Origin: Puniceicoccales bacterium
GTDB lineage: Bacteria > Verrucomicrobiota > Verrucomicrobiia > Opitutales > LL51
Direction: 5' to 3'
Length of the DNA: 10,311 nt
Assembly: GCA_031283585.1 (NCBI GenBank)
Contig: JAITBP010000004.1
Span: 1 to 10,311, forward strand
Part shown: positions 3,412-10,311 of the stretch, one piece after another
Position numbering within the stretch: position 1 is the stretch's first letter
How the letters are laid out: each line of letters opens with the position of its first letter
Position numbers and translations under genes: made by a program
The notes under the pieces: model-generated
The model's database searches: none
What the model saw: the letters and a program-made list of their open reading frames with translations, nothing else
Told to the model about the DNA's origin: nothing

Positions 3412-4898
3412 ACTTCGGCCAATTCACGAAGGGTTTCAGCGGATTTTCCCAGTGTAAAAAATTGGTCTTCGGTCATCCGCCAGGTCCAGTTATTTGTTTG
3501 GGTTCCCGGGGTATTTAGTCTGGCATTTTGATCCAGGCCTAGAATGTCCTGGGTGCAGATTATGGCCGTGTTACAAGGTGATTTGTAGGCTTCGGTCAGA
3601 AGGGCCCAGACCAGAGAGTTGTCATCGGATTTTACATAGCGCCTGATGTTGTGTTTATCTATCTCGCCCAGAGAGTTAACCCAGCCCCGTAGGGTATTGT
3701 TGTCGTGGGTACCGGTGTACATGACGTTGTTTTGGTATTGGTTATGTGGCAGGTAGGTGCTTTGTGGAAAATTTGAAAATGCAAATTGTAAAACGGCCAT
3801 GCCTGGGAAACCTGTAGTTTTTAGCAGGTCTGTCACGCCTTTGTTCAGTTCCCCCAGGTTTTCGGCGATGCATTCCAATTTTGGGAATTTTTTTTTGATG
3901 ACTTTGAAAAAATCAACTCCTGGCCCAGCATTCCAGGAGCCATTTTTGGCAGTTTCTGAACCGAAAGGTACAGCCCAAAAGTCATAAAACCCACGAAAAT
4001 GATCCAGCCGTATCACATCGTAGAGTTCGAGATTTCTTTTAAGACGGTCTAGCCACCATTTGTAATTTATCTCCTTGAGCACCTGCCAGTTATACAATGG
4101 ATTTCCCCAAAGCTGTCCTGATTCCGAGAAGTAATCCGGAGGAACACCGGCCAGCTGGGTTGGGCGATTTTTGTCATCAAATAGGAAGATTTGTTTATTT
4201 GCCCAGACATCAGCGCTGTCCAGCCCAGGGAAAATCGGGATATCGCCGATTAGCTTGATGCCATTTTGCTGGGCATAGCTTCTGAGATCCGAGAATTGTT
4301 TATGGAAAACGTATTGTATGGCCTTGTGTATGTTGGCCAATTTTATCACTTCCGATGGAAGTTTTTTCAGATCCGATGAGGATGAAAATTCGGCTGGCCA
4401 CTGGTACCAGGGTTTTTTGTCAAAATACTCTTTCAGTGCCATGAAGTTGCAGAACGGATCAAGCCATTTTGCCGAACTTTTGAATTTATTAAAACCTTCG
4501 TCCAGGTTTTTGTATTTTTTTAAAAAATTTTCCGATGCCGAAAATATTATGGGCCAGAACAATTCATTGAGCTTGGAAAAATCAACCCGATCTCTTGAAA
4601 GTTCGGCTAAAGGTCTCGTATCTTCTTTGGATAAAAGGCCTTCGTTCACAAAATAGTTCAGATCTATCAGGTATGGATTACCGGCGAAGCTGGATAGACT
4701 CTGGTAGGGAGAGTCGCCGTAACCTGTTGGCGATAGTGGACAAACCTGCCAATATTTTATTTTGCCTGCCCGTAGAAAGTTCAGGAAATTTTTGGCATTT
4801 CCATCGATACAACCGATGCCCTGGTCGCTGGGAAGGCAGGTCAGGTGATGCAAAATTCCTGCAGAACGTTGTTGTAGACAATTGAATAGATGTTCCAT
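3399..4898 (-). CDS. malQ: 4-alpha-glucanotransferase (amylomaltase, GH77)
   Basis: About 500 aa with SPYQSLSSFAGNPYLID, GDIPIF...DSADVW, WGNPLYNW, IRLDHFRGF, IAENLG and YTGTHDNNT, the GH77 catalytic motif set. I prefer ATG at 4898 (AAAGGGA Shine-Dalgarno 5 nt upstream) over the track's TTG at 4901. Confidence 0.92.
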   Translation of the reverse strand: MEHLFNCLQQRSAGILHHLTCLPSDQGIGCIDGNAKNFLNFLRAGKIKYWQVCPLSPTGYGDSPYQSLSSFAGNPYLIDLNYFVNEGLLSKEDTRPLAELSRDRVDFSKLNELFWPIIFSASENFLKKYKNLDEGFNKFKSSAKWLDPFCNFMALKEYFDKKPWYQWPAEFSSSSDLKKLPSEVIKLANIHKAIQYVFHKQFSDLRSYAQQNGIKLIGDIPIFPGLDSADVWANKQIFLFDDKNRPTQLAGVPPDYFSESGQLWGNPLYNWQVLKEINYKWWLDRLKRNLELYDVIRLDHFRGFYDFWAVPFGSETAKNGSWNAGPGVDFFKVIKKKFPKLECIAENLGELNKGVTDLLKTTGFPGMAVLQFAFSNFPQSTYLPHNQYQNNVMYTGTHDNNTLRGWVNSLGEIDKHNIRRYVKSDDNSLVWALLTEAYKSPCNTAIICTQDILGLDQNARLNTPGTQTNNWTWRMTEDQFFTLGKSAETLRELAEVYDR

Positions 4899-4922: not shown

Positions 4923-7079
4923 TCAAATTAGTTCTGATGCCAATAAAATTTCTCGATTTAGAAAAATTCCATGCTTTTCATATACCAGTTCTCTGGCGAT
5001 TTTTATCAAGGTTTTGACATCATTTGATGAAGCATTGCCGTTGTTTACTATGAAATTCGCATGTTTTGGCGAAATTGATGCACCGCCGATCCGGGTGCCT
5101 TTCAGTCCGCAGTCATCGATCAACCTTCCGGCCGACAGGTCTGGTGGATTTTTGAAGACGCTGCCGGCACTTGGAGCCACGGGTTGTGATGCTAACCTTT
5201 TACGCATGAATGCCTTCGATGCATCCATTATGTCTTTAACCGGTGCCTTGCTTTTGAATTGGAACGTGGCCGATAGTATTGTTCCTGATTTTGCATCGAT
5301 GCCGGATCTGTAACTAAACTGAATATCTGATTTATCAAGATTGTGTATTTTACCATTGGGATCCAGCAGTTTAACCGAAATCAATGGGTCAAAAATTTCC
5401 CGGTTGTTGGCCCCGGCATTCATGACTAGCGCTCCACCGATGGTTGAAGGAATGTTGCCCAGGCCGACCATATCCATGAACCCATGGGTGGCGACACGAT
5501 GGCATAGTGTTTTCAAAGATGTTCCAGCGAAAGCTATTACGGTTTCTTCATCAGGCCATATAATTTGCTTCCAGTGGTTATTTGTCAGGGCTATCACGGC
5601 ACCATCGAATCCTTCGTCGTCGAAAAGTATGTTGGATCCGTTGCCGAGAATGAGGTGAGGAAATTGGTATTTTTTTAGCATGGATAGAAGGTTGACTAGA
5701 GCATCTAGATCATTTGGCTCGGCGAAAATCTTTGCCGGTCCTCCTATTTTGAATGTGCTATGGTCCGCCAATTTTGTGGTCGTTGACAGCAGAATAGCCT
5801 CAGCTAATCCATTCGCATTCAGGGCATTAGTTATTTCGACCGTTTTTATATCTCTCACCAGGGCGTTGGCCATTAGGTTCAGATTGCCGGCGCCGATGAA
5901 CAGCAGATTTGCATCATCAGCCATTGCTGTAATTTGCGATACTTTTTCCCCTAGGTCCTGCTTGGTCTCAGAAAGGGAAACGTCCCAGCCATGGCATAGT
6001 TTCAATAAATCCTCGCTGGTACCTCCGGGAATTTCGTTGATTTCATCGGATTTGTACACCGGAAGAATGATAGCTTTGCCGGATTTTTTCAAAATTTCTG
6101 AAAATTCAACCAGGTACTGCTTCGTCCTGGTATATCTGTGGGGCTGAAACAAGATATGGTTTTTTTTGTCAGATTTCGATGCGATGTAGGCCGAGATTTC
6201 CGTTGGATTGTGAGCATAGTCACAGAAGATCGCATGGCCATTAATGGTGCCAAGGAAATCATTTCTGCGTAGCAACCCCTTGAATTTGTCTATCTTACTT
6301 AGATCTGGGCGGGCTCCGATGATGGCTTCAAAGGCACTGGAAACGGCAGCCAGGTTGTGGGCCTGGAATGAACCAGCATCCGGCTGAAATTCCACTGGTG
6401 CATGGTTGGCTTTGTTGGCCAAGTCTCTCAGTGCTTTGTCGTCTTGCGGCACAATTATCCTGTGGCTGGTTTGCAAAAATAGCTTAAAAATTGCTTTCTT
6501 CATAGACTCAAAGGAGCCGTAATTGGCCAGATGGTCGTCATCAAAATTTAACATTACCGTTATGTATGGGGCAAAATTTTCGATGGTACCATCGCTTTCA
6601 TCTACTTCACAAACAAGCAGTTTTGAATCTTTGTCAAAATTTGCTGGCAAAAAATGGTCCCTGGGTAGCGCTCCAATGATATGGCTAAAAGGAACCTGAT
6701 GTTCTTTAAGTAGATAGGTTAAAAATGCAGTGACGGAACTTTTTCCATGGGAGCCGGTGATTGCCACAAGTTTTTTATCTTTTGCGATTTTTGCCAAAAA
6801 TACACCGCGCCGCGTACATTCTAGATTGTTTGCATCAGCGTAATCAAATAAAAAATGATTTGGCCGGATAGCACTGGAATATATCAGCTGGTCGATGGAA
6901 TTTGGCAAGTGCCTGCCAGATAAAACTACAACGTTATTTTTCTCCAACAGAAGGGCCATGGATTCATTTTCGTTGTCGTCCCAGCCATAAACTGTATGTC
7001 CTTGTTGTGCAATGTATATAGCCAATGGAGCCATGCCCATCCCAAAGGCACCGACGAACATAAAATTTTTAAAGTGCAT
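4923..7079 (-). CDS. murC/murB: Fused UDP-N-acetylmuramate--L-alanine ligase (N-terminal ~415 aa) and UDP-N-acetylenolpyruvoylglucosamine reductase (C-terminal ~290 aa)
   Basis: MurC part: FVGAFGMGMAPLAIY...GHTVYGWD (Rossmann), ITGSHGKSSVT (P-loop), DYAHNPTEI, FQPHRYTRT, FIGAGNLN. MurB part: TFKIGGPAKIF, ILGNGSNILF, GLGNIPSTIGGALVMNAGA, FSYRSG, SAGSVFKNP, AGRLIDDCGLKG..IGGASISPKHANFIVN. It is one uninterrupted ORF. Confidence 0.9.
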   Translation of the reverse strand: MHFKNFMFVGAFGMGMAPLAIYIAQQGHTVYGWDDNENESMALLLEKNNVVVLSGRHLPNSIDQLIYSSAIRPNHFLFDYADANNLECTRRGVFLAKIAKDKKLVAITGSHGKSSVTAFLTYLLKEHQVPFSHIIGALPRDHFLPANFDKDSKLLVCEVDESDGTIENFAPYITVMLNFDDDHLANYGSFESMKKAIFKLFLQTSHRIIVPQDDKALRDLANKANHAPVEFQPDAGSFQAHNLAAVSSAFEAIIGARPDLSKIDKFKGLLRRNDFLGTINGHAIFCDYAHNPTEISAYIASKSDKKNHILFQPHRYTRTKQYLVEFSEILKKSGKAIILPVYKSDEINEIPGGTSEDLLKLCHGWDVSLSETKQDLGEKVSQITAMADDANLLFIGAGNLNLMANALVRDIKTVEITNALNANGLAEAILLSTTTKLADHSTFKIGGPAKIFAEPNDLDALVNLLSMLKKYQFPHLILGNGSNILFDDEGFDGAVIALTNNHWKQIIWPDEETVIAFAGTSLKTLCHRVATHGFMDMVGLGNIPSTIGGALVMNAGANNREIFDPLISVKLLDPNGKIHNLDKSDIQFSYRSGIDAKSGTILSATFQFKSKAPVKDIMDASKAFMRKRLASQPVAPSAGSVFKNPPDLSAGRLIDDCGLKGTRIGGASISPKHANFIVNNGNASSNDVKTLIKIARELVYEKHGIFLNREILLASELI

Positions 7080-7181: not shown

Positions 7182-9386
7182 ATGCAATTGGCCAGAGTAG
7201 TTTTGTTTTCGGCGGTGGATAGGGCATTTGTTTACATCGTCCGGAAGGAGCTGGTCGATGTGCTAGTGGTTGGCATGTTGGTCCAGGTACCGCTGGGCCC
7301 CAGGTTGGTCCAGGCTGTTGTGCTGGAATTGATTGATTCCGATGGTGATAGTTATGAATTTGAGCTCCGCGAAATTTCTAGTATAGTCCATGCGGTTCCG
7401 GTGGTAAGTAATGATGTCATCGCATTATGTCGTTGGGTATCAGAATATTATAATGCGTCATTGGCCAGTGTTTTCGAGTGTGCTGTGCCCAGCGTTTTGC
7501 GTAGAAATTTCTCAACCAGGTTATCAACGGTGATAAAGGTAGCTAAGTTGTTGGATGATAATGAGTTACTGAAACTATTTCGTAAAGCTCCAAAGCAGCA
7601 TCAGGCCTATAGTTATCTCAGGACCGCCGGTGGTTGCCCGAGGAAGGACTTGCTGGAATTGTTTTCGGTAAGTGTGGTTAACAGCTTGGTCGACAAAGGG
7701 ATATTTATCGAAGAATTTCGGAATGAACCGCGGCTGGCCCAGGACGATGACCAGGCCGAGGGTCATGGTTTTCGGGCCCTGACATTAACCAAAGCCCAAC
7801 AGGCCGTGGCAGATGACATAAAGGCCAGTTTGGCTAGGCGGTTGTTTTCCGTACATTTGCTTCAGGGCGTTACCGGATCCGGAAAAACTGAGGTATATCT
7901 CGATGCTATAGAAAGTGTTATAAAACATGGCGGCGAGGTTTTATATCTGGTACCTGAGTTGGCTTTGACGCCGCAGACGTTGGCCAGAATTCGGAATCGG
8001 TTTTCTGGGTACGGTGTGGTGCTATGGCACAGTAACCTTTCAGACGGAGAGAGAAAGGACGCATGGCTGGCCATTGCCAGTGGTGAAGTCAGTGTGGTTG
8101 TTGGGGCCAGATCCGCCCTGTTTGTACCGCTGAAAAATCTGCAGTTGGTAATTGTGGATGAGGAGCACGACCAATCCTACAAGCAGAGTGACCAGCCCAG
8201 GTATAACGGGCGGGATGTGGCTGTGTACCGGGCAAAACTTAACGATGCGCTGTGTATTTTAGGTTCGGCGACGCCGTCGACCGAGTCCTACCTCAATGTG
8301 TACCATAAGGGTTACAGGTTGAATGAGTTGAATCAGCGTGTCGGTAATAGTAGGTTGCCAACGATCCATTTGGTTGATAGAAGATATGAAAAATGTATTA
8401 TTTCTAACCTGTTGCGCGACAAGATCTTTGACAGGCTTGAAAAAAATGAGCAGGTGATTCTATTGCTCAATAGGAGGGGTTATGCGCCGACGGCCCTGTG
8501 TCCTAGTTGCGATTATGTGGCCAGATGTCCGAATTGCGATGTTTCCCTATCCTATCATCGCAGTCAGCAGGCGATGAAGTGCCATTTTTGCGGATACACC
8601 GAGCCACCGAGGACGAATTGCCCGAAGTGTGGTGGGTTGGAGATATTTTACAATGGCGTTGGTACGCAACGGCTTGAGCAAATTATTTCCGGGATGTTTC
8701 CCGGGGCATCCATTGCCCGGATAGATTCCGATGTCATGAGAAAAAAAGATGAATTTCGTATAATTTTATCAAAGTTTAGGAAAGGCCTTGTGGATATTTT
8801 GCTTGGAACCCAGATGATAGCTAAGGGGTTGGATTTTCCGAATGTCACGTTGGTTGGTGTGGTTGATTGCGATATCTCGTTGAATGTGCAGGACTTTCGG
8901 TCCATGGAGAGAACATTTCAGATGATCGTCCAGGTGGCTGGAAGAGCAGGGCGTGGCGACAGGAATGGTGAGGTTGTGTTGCAAACATTTAGGCCGGAGT
9001 GTATGGCCATAACCAAGGCTCGGAGTAACGACTTTTATGGTTTTATGGAGCTGGAGCTGGCCACCAGGCGGCATTTTGGTTATCCTCCCTACCGGAAGCT
9101 AATTCGGCATGTTATAATGAGTAGAAATGAGACCAAGGCGGAATTTTTTGCAAACAATTGGGGCCTATTTCTGGAAAAAAACATCACCGACCCGACCCTG
9201 GAGATGAAAGGCCCGACAAAATGTATGATTGAGAAGATAAACGGTTGGTATAGGTTTGCAATCTATTTTTTTGTGGTCGGTTCGGTGGGCAGTAGGGTAA
9301 AGACCCTCGATGCGCTGAGGAAGGAATTCGCCTTTCCTCGGGACATCAGGGAATACCTGGATGTGGATCCAGCGGACTGCGCCTAG
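7182..9386 (+). CDS. priA: Primosomal protein N' (replication restart helicase PriA)
   Basis: 734 aa. N-terminal 3'-DNA-binding-type region (VQVPLGPRLVQAVVLEL), Walker A GVTGSGKTEVY, DEEH box VIVDEEHD, Cys-rich zinc region CPSCDYVARCPNCDVSLSYH...CHFCGY...CPKCGG, helicase C motifs LGTQMIAKGLDFPNV and QVAGRAGRG. Confidence 0.95.
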   Translation: MQLARVVLFSAVDRAFVYIVRKELVDVLVVGMLVQVPLGPRLVQAVVLELIDSDGDSYEFELREISSIVHAVPVVSNDVIALCRWVSEYYNASLASVFECAVPSVLRRNFSTRLSTVIKVAKLLDDNELLKLFRKAPKQHQAYSYLRTAGGCPRKDLLELFSVSVVNSLVDKGIFIEEFRNEPRLAQDDDQAEGHGFRALTLTKAQQAVADDIKASLARRLFSVHLLQGVTGSGKTEVYLDAIESVIKHGGEVLYLVPELALTPQTLARIRNRFSGYGVVLWHSNLSDGERKDAWLAIASGEVSVVVGARSALFVPLKNLQLVIVDEEHDQSYKQSDQPRYNGRDVAVYRAKLNDALCILGSATPSTESYLNVYHKGYRLNELNQRVGNSRLPTIHLVDRRYEKCIISNLLRDKIFDRLEKNEQVILLLNRRGYAPTALCPSCDYVARCPNCDVSLSYHRSQQAMKCHFCGYTEPPRTNCPKCGGLEIFYNGVGTQRLEQIISGMFPGASIARIDSDVMRKKDEFRIILSKFRKGLVDILLGTQMIAKGLDFPNVTLVGVVDCDISLNVQDFRSMERTFQMIVQVAGRAGRGDRNGEVVLQTFRPECMAITKARSNDFYGFMELELATRRHFGYPPYRKLIRHVIMSRNETKAEFFANNWGLFLEKNITDPTLEMKGPTKCMIEKINGWYRFAIYFFVVGSVGSRVKTLDALRKEFAFPRDIREYLDVDPADCA

Positions 9387-9387
9387 G
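9318..9387 (+). repeat. Copy A of a 64-70-nt repeat (the native 3' end of priA including its stop codon)
   Basis: 9318-9333 is identical to 9999-10014 and 9340-9387 is identical to 10015-10062. The only difference is 6 nt (ttcctc, 9334-9339) present here and absent in copy B. Confidence 0.9.
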
Positions 9388-9388
9388 G

Positions 9389-9844
9389 TTATGGTTTGAC
9401 CTTAACCTCTATCTTGCCATCTTTAAACTCATAGGTGCCTGTGCCACCATTAGTACTCACGACCGTTAGTGTTTTAGTGTCACTAACATAACTAAAGTCC
9501 CACGGCGCCCCCCAGGGATCCAGTGGGATAGTACTGTCGAAAAAGTTCGCTAGCCCATTTAGGTTTGCTGTTGCAGGAGAAGCATCAGTAGCAGCCGTCA
9601 CCTTTATGCCATCAAGCGCTTTATTTACCAAGACATCATTATAATCCTTGTAGGCATAGAGGGCACTGCAGGCGGCTTTGACGGTGGATTCCAGGAAGGC
9701 CTTGGCGGCTTTCTTTTTACCGGAGTCCAACACACCACCCATGTTGCTGATACCCACACCGGCCAACACGGCTATAAGGGCGATGACAATCAGGATCTCC
9801 ATCAGCGTCATAGCCCGGTCTCTGTTTTTTAATATTCCATCCAT
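9389..9844 (-). CDS. GspG-like type II secretion pseudopilin with a prepilin-type N-terminal cleavage/methylation domain
   Basis: Short basic leader MDGILKNRDRA, then MTLMEILIVIALIAVLAGVGISN (Glu at +5, hydrophobic helix), GGVLDSGKKKAAKAFL, and LDPWGAPWDFSY matching the GspG DPWG motif. Strong Shine-Dalgarno sequence upstream. Its stop lies 2 nt from the priA stop (convergent). Confidence 0.85.
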   Translation of the reverse strand: MDGILKNRDRAMTLMEILIVIALIAVLAGVGISNMGGVLDSGKKKAAKAFLESTVKAACSALYAYKDYNDVLVNKALDGIKVTAATDASPATANLNGLANFFDSTIPLDPWGAPWDFSYVSDTKTLTVVSTNGGTGTYEFKDGKIEVKVKP

Positions 9845-9852
9845 AAATCAAA

Positions 9853-9858
9853 CTCCTT
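9853..9858 (-). promoter_or_regulatory. Shine-Dalgarno sequence AAGGAG for the pseudopilin gene
   Basis: The reverse complement of 9853-9858 is AAGGAG, 8 nt upstream of the ATG at 9844. Confidence 0.7.
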
Positions 9859-9904
9859 TTAAGATTTTTCTGCGTAGCAGTTTAGACAAAAACCGTACAT
9901 TGGC

Positions 9905-9948
9905 AAGAAAAAACAAAAAAAACGAAAAAAAACGAAAAAACAAAAAAA
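9905..9948. repeat. Array of five A-tracts (A6, A8, A8, A6, A7) separated by C or CG; T-rich on the pilin-coding strand
   Basis: gcaagAAAAAAcAAAAAAAAcgAAAAAAAAcgAAAAAAcAAAAAAAtgc. Tract centres are spaced about 8, 10, 9 and 7.5 bp apart. The array lies 61-104 bp upstream of the pseudopilin ATG (9844). Confidence 0.8.
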
Positions 9949-9996
9949 TGCAGCCAGCACAGTTACCAGTGTGATAGCGATCAAAATTTCCATCAT
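9949..9996 (-). pseudogene. Orphan fragment of a prepilin N-terminal hydrophobic helix (no leader peptide, no globular domain)
   Basis: Minus-strand ATGATGGAAATTTTGATCGCTATCACACTGGTAACTGTGCTGGCTGCA encodes MMEILIAITLVTVLAA, against pilin 1 LMEILIVIALIAVLAG (10/16 aa identical, 31/48 nt). The reading frame then runs through the T-tract array as Phe-rich low complexity to a TAA at 9859-9861 (45 codons in total). It abuts the priA relic with a 2-nt gap. Confidence 0.55.
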
Positions 9997-9998
9997 CT

Positions 9999-10062
9999 AG
10001 GAAGGAATTCGCCTGGGACATCAGGGAATACCTGGATGTGGATCCAGCGGACTGCGCCTAGG
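9999..10062 (+). pseudogene. Copy B of the repeat: relic of the priA 3' end (last 20 codons plus stop), not part of any ORF
   Basis: Would encode RKEFAWDIREYLDVDPADCA*, against native RKEFAFPRDIREYLDVDPADCA*. An in-frame TAG lies 24 nt upstream (9975-9977) and similarity to priA stops at 9998/9999. All 64 aligned nt are identical to 9318-9387. Confidence 0.85.
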
Positions 10063-10311
10063 CTTTGGGTATGATATCAACAGTTATCTTTCCATTTACA
10101 AACGTATAATTGCCTTTGTCACCATTACTACTCTCGACCTTTAGGGTAGGACCTATTACGTTCTTGTCGCTCTTATCAGCATAACTAAACTTCCACGGCG
10201 CCCCCCAGGGGTCCAGTGGGGTAGTACTGTCGAAAAAGGTCGCTAGCCCCTTTAGGTCCGTAATTGGAGTATTAGCATCCGTTGTTATGTCCTTAATCTC
10301 AGCCTTTACAT
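10058..10311 (-). CDS. Second GspG-like pseudopilin paralog; only the C-terminal ~84 codons are in the window
   Basis: My translation (open to the window edge): ...VKAEIKDITTDANTPITDLKGLATFFDSTTPLDPWGAPWKFSYADKSDKNVIGPTLKVESSNGDKGNYTFVNGKITVDIIPKA*. It aligns with pilin 1 (...NLNGLANFFDSTIPLDPWGAPWDFSYVSDTKTLTVVSTNGGTGTYEFKDGKIEVKVKP*). Its stop (rc of 10058-10060) shares the CCTAGG palindrome with the relic priA TAG. Confidence 0.85.
   Translation of the reverse strand, partial: VKAEIKDITTDANTPITDLKGLATFFDSTTPLDPWGAPWKFSYADKSDKNVIGPTLKVESSNGDKGNYTFVNGKITVDIIPKA

Follow-up and report, generated by a model that had tools for sequence, protein, structure and literature searches.

A second copy of the priA 3′ end beside a diverged pilin paralog in a Puniceicoccales bacterium: a probable passenger of tandem duplication in a recombining pilin array

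The stretch of DNA analyzed here (the window) is the entire 10,311-nt contig JAITBP010000004.1 of a metagenome-assembled genome (MAG) from a Puniceicoccales bacterium, and coordinates are window positions unless another contig is named. It contains a complete priA gene, encoding primosomal protein N′, followed on the other strand by two genes for GspG-like prepilins, called here pilin A and pilin B, in the second of which the contig ends. The feature in question is the 3′ end of priA, of which a second copy lies between the two pilin genes (Table 1). The copy within priA (copy A) is the true end of that gene, the Pfam PriA_C match running to residue 730 of 734, and the predicted protein is 100% identical to P0001, annotated ‘MAG: primosomal protein N' [Puniceicoccales bacterium]’. 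Both copies terminate in the palindrome CCTAGG (9382–9387 and 10057–10062), which supplies stop codons on both strands, namely the priA TAG on the forward strand and the pilin B TAG (10058–10060) on the reverse strand. The TAG of CCTAGG is also in frame with pilin A, which has gained a TAA (9389–9391) two codons ahead of it and 2 nt beyond the priA stop. Pilins A and B are 68.6% identical in nucleotide sequence, with a synonymous divergence (dS) of 0.42.

Alignment of the two copies shows 16 identical nucleotides (9318–9333 and 9999–10014; AGGAAGGAATTCGCCT) and an exact match of 48 nt (9340–9387 and 10015–10062), the two blocks being separated in copy A by 6 nt, TTCCTC (9334–9339), that are deleted from copy B. 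The repeat reported in the initial annotation is thus confirmed; the 48-mer matched twice in 0 of 200 dinucleotide-preserving shuffles. Copy B is non-coding on its own strand, with an in-frame TAG (9975–9977) upstream and no forward-strand open reading frame (ORF) of at least 50 aa covering it, and homology to priA begins abruptly at 9998/9999, both as originally described; on the reverse strand it forms the stop codon and 3′ flank of pilin B. The placement of each copy back-to-back with the stop of a GspG-like gene on the opposite strand likewise holds. The copies belong to two direct and adjacent units (9318–9998 versus 9999–10311 and beyond), in which members of the direct repeat families D1, D2 and D4 lie 675, 693 and 681 nt apart; the unequal distance from the element to the next conserved block, given earlier as 99 nt versus 117 nt, is reproduced by the spacings of 675 versus 693 nt. 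Two candidate features of this region were rejected. An AGGAAGG microhomology between pilin coding sequence (9690–9706) and the junction (9996–12; family D5) is regarded as a coincidence, as the sequence left of the junction does not fit, and a 57-aa ORF on the reverse strand (9848–10021) that starts inside copy B is probably spurious, being of low complexity, Phe-rich and without a Shine-Dalgarno sequence.

Table 1. Features of the priA–pilin region of the window (nt, nucleotides; aa, amino acids)
Feature	Position	Strand	Description
priA, primosomal protein N′, complete	7182..9386	+	734 aa; Pfam PriA_3primeBD, DEAD, Helicase_C, Zn_ribbon_PriA, PriA_C
Copy A, original priA tail	9318..9387	+	70 nt: last 23 codons including TAG stop, plus 1 nt
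Pilin A, GspG-like prepilin	9389..9844	-	151 aa; leader MDGILKNRDRA, mature N-terminus MTLME..., Glu at +5
Pilin A 5′ region	9845..9906	-	Shine-Dalgarno AAGGAG 8 nt before ATG; sigma-70-like TTGCCA-16-TAAACT (9906-9879), consensus match only
A-rich tract	9904..9948		Degenerate decamers AAAAAACGAA, ~3.4-4.6 copies; directly upstream of -35 hexamer
Putative pilin N-terminal helix remnant	9949..9996	-	MMEILIAITLVTVLAA; apparently cut at duplication junction; in-frame TAG immediately upstream
Probable novel tandem-duplication junction	9998..9999		Boundary between unit 1 (left) and unit 2 (right); priA homology starts here
Copy B, probable passenger copy of priA tail	9999..10062	+	64 nt, non-coding on + strand
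Pilin B, diverged paralog	10058..10311	-	C-terminal 83 codons plus stop; cut off by contig end

The same junction is found a second time, on a contig from a different sample. A search with pilin A returned P0122 and P0123 as closer paralogs, with identities of 70% and 58%; both are encoded by L003, a JGI contig of 1,317 nt. In window orientation L003 carries the 5′ part of a further pilin (X), its 5′ untranslated region (UTR) with the promoter-like region and the A-rich tract, the helix remnant, the junction, a 6-nt-deleted copy of the priA tail, P0122, a 33-nt spacer and P0123. The L003 tail copy is identical to copy B at 64 of 64 positions, and the stop codon of P0122 lies within its CCTAGG, as for pilin B; no element accompanies P0123, which is followed by the 33-nt spacer and the next pilin. 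Comparison of window positions 9663–10062 with L003 shows 12 mismatches and one 12-nt indel, and the last 111 nt hold only one mismatch, at the junction base, where a T to G substitution in L003 extends the priA homology by 1 nt. Right after CCTAGG, where pilin B and P0122 begin, the similarity collapses. Because the same junction and the same 6-nt deletion were assembled independently, with distinguishing substitutions nearby, the junction is real; judging from this comparison, the 6-nt-deleted copy is older than the split between window and L003, whether these are alleles of two strains or two places in one array. The A-rich tract, 12 nt longer in the window than in L003 (reverse strand, about 241–286), has a length polymorphism that looks like slippage. 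When the L003 ORF spanning junction and tail copy served as a protein query, no additional ORFs with the junction emerged. Exact look-ups with the PriA and pilin A proteins of the window matched no indexed contig. An exact 35-mer of the element was found in none of the GTDB representative genomes or JGI metagenome contigs searched, nor was a conserved pilin 29-mer found in the same JGI contigs, and the source samples were not among these collections (L003 itself contains the 35-mer and was not returned).

The direction of descent is indicated by two more distant relatives, L001 and L002, whose PriA proteins are 76% and 78% identical, respectively, to that of the window. A pilin gene downstream of and convergent with priA is also present in L002, in the order priA, a small lipoprotein-like gene on the other strand, then the pilin, and there is no copy of the priA tail. 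In L001 the same small gene follows priA, with about 60 nt of contig left after it. Roughly 30% of the positions in the priA tail are different between the window and either relative, and the 6 nt, which encode Phe-Pro, are present in both relatives. It follows that copy B derives from this lineage's own priA, that the deletion is derived and that copy A represents the ancestral form; a difference of this size also means that the priA tail is not intrinsically ultra-conserved DNA. A genome locus search based on PriA found only L002 again (as L004) and distant phyla, and nothing further on the downstream locus. The small gene (L001 12237–12488 and L002 about 3630–3878, both on the reverse strand) encodes a product with Ala/Pro/Lys-rich repeats and a lipobox, ILNSGC; in the existing annotation an ORF is placed on the opposite (forward) strand instead, which looks like a miscall. 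It is absent from the window, where the pilin adjoins priA directly.

The initial annotation held that a relic perfectly conserved beside diverged paralogs is not what duplication followed by neutral drift predicts. This picture is incomplete, as the contig stops short of the 5′ half of pilin B. The pilin genes were compared over five copies, partly truncated and from two short contigs (A, B, X, P0122 and P0123), and their divergence proves to be strongly uneven. Over the first 48–59 codons A, X, P0122 and P0123 are 96.5–98.6% identical in DNA sequence (dS 0.03–0.07), whereas in the remaining, C-terminal part dS is 0.33–0.67 and dN/dS about 1, both dS and dN being inflated there by an indel-rich alignment that is hard to make. 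Counted from the first aligned codon, the divergence changes at 143–211 nt (Fisher p from 1e-13 to 1e-16), and the contrast between 5′ and 3′ parts persists with synonymous sites alone (p = 0.007–0.016). At the scale of the unit, the flanks are 94–100% identical and the pilin core, two thirds of the gene on the C-terminal side, about 54–74%, the 5′ ~180 nt of the paralogs together with the upstream junction region falling at 94–98.6%. The informative sites of A, B and P0122 form 26 runs among 88 sites, in alternating blocks of A=B and A=P0122 (runs test p = 4e-5). Measured against the adjacent pilin divergence of 22–31%, the probability of no change in 64 nt is 1e-7 to 3e-11, and to this extent the heterogeneity that had been pointed out is genuine; at the divergence of the conserved class, 1.4–3.5%, the same probability is 0.10–0.41, and the element does not differ significantly from the rest of the window/L003 alignment (Fisher p = 0.19–0.23). 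As the conserved flanks are as alike as the element, its identity is unremarkable, being simply that of the flank class to which it belongs, and the anomaly is the hypervariable pilin core. Since positive selection alone does not raise dS, the 7- to 10-fold difference in dS within a gene pair suggests separate histories of the two parts, and in combination with the mosaic sharing of sites it points to recombination or gene conversion among the paralogs, which of the explanations offered earlier is the best supported. Two rejected candidates for the source of variation may be mentioned here: all substitution types occur between the paralogs and there is no reverse transcriptase in the window, contrary to mutagenesis of the diversity-generating retroelement type, and no inverted repeats beyond chance-level 13–15-mers occur in 9250–10311, contrary to invertible or shufflon switching.

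These results are probably best explained by considering the priA tail in copy B as a passenger, a fragment carried along from one margin of a tandemly duplicated segment, in a family of pilin genes that gene conversion has molded. In the ancestral state the pilin and priA would have been convergent, with stop codons touching in CCTAGG. We infer a head-to-tail duplication whose unit would begin 70 nt inside the 3′ end of priA, cross the pilin and end about 150 nt upstream of it. The other end of the duplication would fall in a fragment of an older pilin N-terminus (the putative remnant at 9949–9996 has about 65% similarity to pilin A residues MEILIVIALIAVLAG), giving a unit composed of tail, pilin, promoter and remnant. 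Because priA and the pilin touch, any duplication of the pilin 3′ end with some flank must take a piece of priA along. Copy B would then have lost its 6 nt, and later the variable cores would have been exchanged or diversified as the flanks stayed alike or were homogenized, probably under selection for diversity acting alongside recombination among divergent pilin paralogs. The conserved flanks, with the 48-nt exact tract included, could serve as homology for such events without being selected for it. As each unit appears to include a Shine-Dalgarno sequence and a promoter-like site (TTGCCA-16-TAAACT, a match to the consensus only), the downstream gene of each pair could be expressed alone.

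The locus resembles a tandem duplication with a truncated fragment of a neighboring gene in that the units are head-to-tail with a period of 675–693 nt and one boundary in priA, a single novel junction lacks homology, and the extra fragment is non-coding with an in-frame stop upstream. It differs in the uneven divergence within the unit, for which uniform drift is insufficient and recombination among paralogs must be added. That addition resembles the concerted evolution of tandem paralogs, with its low-dS N-terminal block, its high-dS C-terminal region of dN/dS ~1 and its mosaic site sharing, although here the pattern is known from five partly truncated copies on two short contigs. Several observations weigh against the proposed history. 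Part of the contrast in divergence comes from the inflated dS and dN of the variable region, and the contig stops before the 5′ half of pilin B and the outer end of unit 2, whose conservation is extrapolated from the four other paralogs. L003 and the window may be paralogous regions within one genome or orthologous loci in two strains. The complete lack of substitution over three copies of the element has a probability of ~0.02–0.15 depending on the divergence assumed, which is borderline, and recurrent crossing-over inside the element would leave window/L003 homology ending precisely with its final base, as is observed. Lastly, the 6-nt indel persists in both B-type copies, that of the window and that of L003, which argues against conversion tracts across the whole element and is silent on selection.

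A selected role for the element is the principal alternative. It is conceivable, but unlikely, that the copy of the priA tail was co-opted and selected as a 3′ homology anchor for the exchange of variable pilin cassettes, by analogy with the Sma/Cla repeat of Neisseria. RecA-dependent exchange in Escherichia coli has a minimum of roughly 25 bp, which the 48-nt exact tract exceeds. The element is present without substitution at three pilin 3′ ends (A, B and P0122) out of four seen, window/L003 homology stops exactly at its end with different pilins beyond, and the mosaic variable regions show that recombination occurs; yet the element is not conserved significantly more than the other flanks, P0123 has no copy, and all copies lie in one tandem array, as plain duplication predicts, with none elsewhere in the collections searched (which do not include the source samples). 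A more specific form of this proposal, and a somewhat less plausible one, is that the last 64 nt of priA were captured and domesticated as the common 3′ homology block of pilin cassette exchange, framing the core together with the homogenized 5′ ~180 nt, with whole variable regions swapping between tandem expressed paralogs. If true, an anchor comparable to Sma/Cla would have originated here independently and from a traceable source, and would show how such anchors arise. In Neisseria, pilE receives sequence by gene conversion from pilS cassettes, a process enhanced by the Sma/Cla repeat on the 3′ side of pilE; the cassettes have no promoters, ribosome-binding sites or N-terminal coding sequence, and a G-quadruplex (G4) motif 5′ of the expression locus is essential (PMC4402397). 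The pilE/pilS system and the present locus have in common type IV pilin-like genes with conserved 5′ and variable 3′ parts and signs of segmental exchange, and, in part, a conserved element of ~64 nt directly 3′ of the gene, present after A, B and P0122 and not after P0123. The other Neisseria hallmarks are absent. Full-length genes with start codons are found instead of 5′-truncated silent cassettes: pilin A, P0122 and X have complete coding sequence for leader and N-terminal helix with an ATG, P0123 has the helix coding sequence with its leader cut by the contig end, and pilin A has a Shine-Dalgarno sequence and a promoter-like site. No G4 motif (G3+N1-7 x4) occurs on either strand of the window or L003, and the element is recognizably a recent fragment of priA. 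Assignment to the Neisseria type, as far as predicted genes and motifs allow, therefore fails on the two defining features tested, silent cassettes and G4, and the analogy drawn in the initial annotation is reduced to a partial match of the 3′ repeat. The locus is better fitted by a tandem paralog array under concerted evolution, in which the passenger fragment marks the boundary of duplication.

The remaining alternatives require no anchor. Copy B could be without function of its own and owe its identity to continuing gene conversion by copy A, a coding sequence constrained as part of the PriA_C domain; conversion has left signs elsewhere in the array and there are 0 differences in 64 nt over three copies, but the 6-nt deletion retained in both window and L003 means that no tract has crossed it since their split, and zero changes at 1.4–3.5% divergence need no such process, which we regard as improbable here. 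A role of the element as RNA is more doubtful still. It might act as a 3′ UTR, terminator or stabilizer of pilin transcripts, being directly 3′ of the pilin B and P0122 stops and containing the stop itself, or as a trans-antisense to the 3′ end of priA mRNA, to which the pilin B 3′ UTR is complementary, and it includes a 6-bp hairpin, CTGGAT-GTGG-ATCCAG, with a T-rich tract about 50 nt downstream on the pilin strand. That hairpin, however, is not preserved in the priA tails of the relatives; a terminator scan of both strands detected no G+C-rich hairpin with a T run in or beside either copy; neither the element (both strands) nor the entire 3′ region of pilin B is predicted to fold more stably than shuffled sequence (z = −1.0 to −1.3); and Rfam gave no match up to E = 1. 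With no terminator, fold, Rfam family or G4, and with P0123 lacking a copy, the suggestion that the element itself is a recombination or 3′-end signal receives no positive support and is not required. An assembly artefact, in which the priA–pilin loci of two strains were joined as a chimera or collapsed at the contig end, is equally hard to credit. The contig is from a short-read MAG and ends inside the second copy, and related contigs also break in or shortly after the region, but the 9998/9999 junction shares nothing with priA upstream of 9318 and so has no origin in k-mer overlap, the 64-nt repeat is shorter than k = 119 (a value read from a sister MAG contig named k119_... and presumed for this assembly), and the junction with its 6-nt deletion was assembled independently in the other sample with 12 distinguishing substitutions nearby.

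The feature is thus real but most likely nothing out of the ordinary: a piece of priA that hitch-hiked in a pilin array undergoing recombination. Taken alone the element is a routine genomic scar that marks where a pilin tandem duplication would have begun, and it dates that duplication to after the split of this lineage from its nearest sequenced relatives. More useful is the picture of an uncultured Puniceicoccales bacterium with an apparently expanding array of GspG-like pilins that have homogenized flanks and diverged, mosaic C-terminal cores, a pattern that points to possible diversification of surface filaments by recombination in Verrucomicrobiota. No literature specific to the habitat of these MAGs was found. 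All four related contigs end in the pilin region or no more than ~1.1 kb past priA (window at 10311, L001 at 12582, L002 at 4670, L003 at 1 and 1317), and L003 begins and ends within the 5′ block that is nearly identical among the pilins. Short-read assemblies thus seem to break regularly at the pilin array, whose true size would be under-estimated; the fact that related contigs all end here may explain an under-sampling of such arrays in MAGs.

The description of pilin A as GspG-like denotes resemblance and not family membership, to judge from its profile matches. Its scores exceed the cut-offs for the general prepilin signatures, Pfam N_methyl (24.9 bits; cut-off 21.2) and TIGR02532 (22.9 bits; cut-off 16.3), whereas its best NCBIfam match, GspG TIGR01710, reaches 36.3 bits and is thus far under the family cut-off of 88.85; it also matches GspG in PDB entry 5wda (E = 2.5e-4). 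Pilin A shares with GspG, the major pseudopilin of the type II secretion system, the prepilin leader, the cleavage/methylation motif with Glu at +5, the N-terminal hydrophobic helix and a DPWG motif, residues 11–131 aligning to GspG positions 2–115; the name given by NCBI, in contrast, is GspH family. No genes for the machinery of type II secretion or type IV pili are found within the window.

Some gene calls on L003 deserve comment. In the 33-nt gap between P0123 and P0122 (L003 392–424, forward strand) there is no Shine-Dalgarno-like sequence before the MDGILK... start of P0122, unlike the situation in pilin A; translation of P0122 may actually begin at the ATG within ...RAMTLME, or P0122 and P0123 may be co-translated as an operon. 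For pilin X (L003 971–1315, forward strand) the gene caller gives a 55-aa N-terminal extension that runs through the tail copy, remnant and T-rich tract. The frame of this extension is open in L003 and is closed in the window by a TGA (9848–9850) just before the ATG that is preceded by the Shine-Dalgarno sequence, and the extension is most likely an annotation artefact, as judged from the reading frames. Similarly long N-terminal extensions are seen in P0124 and P0125.

The genes upstream of priA in the window are housekeeping genes by their Pfam matches, encoding MlaD, an ABC ATPase, a cytidylyltransferase of the CTP_transf_3 family, 4-alpha-glucanotransferase and a MurC-MurB fusion, and they are syntenic with L001. 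In the last of these, a single ORF of 718 aa (4923–7079, reverse strand) joins MurC-like Mur ligase domains to the FAD-binding and C-terminal domains of MurB, and L001 has an ORF of equal length and domain content at the matching position.

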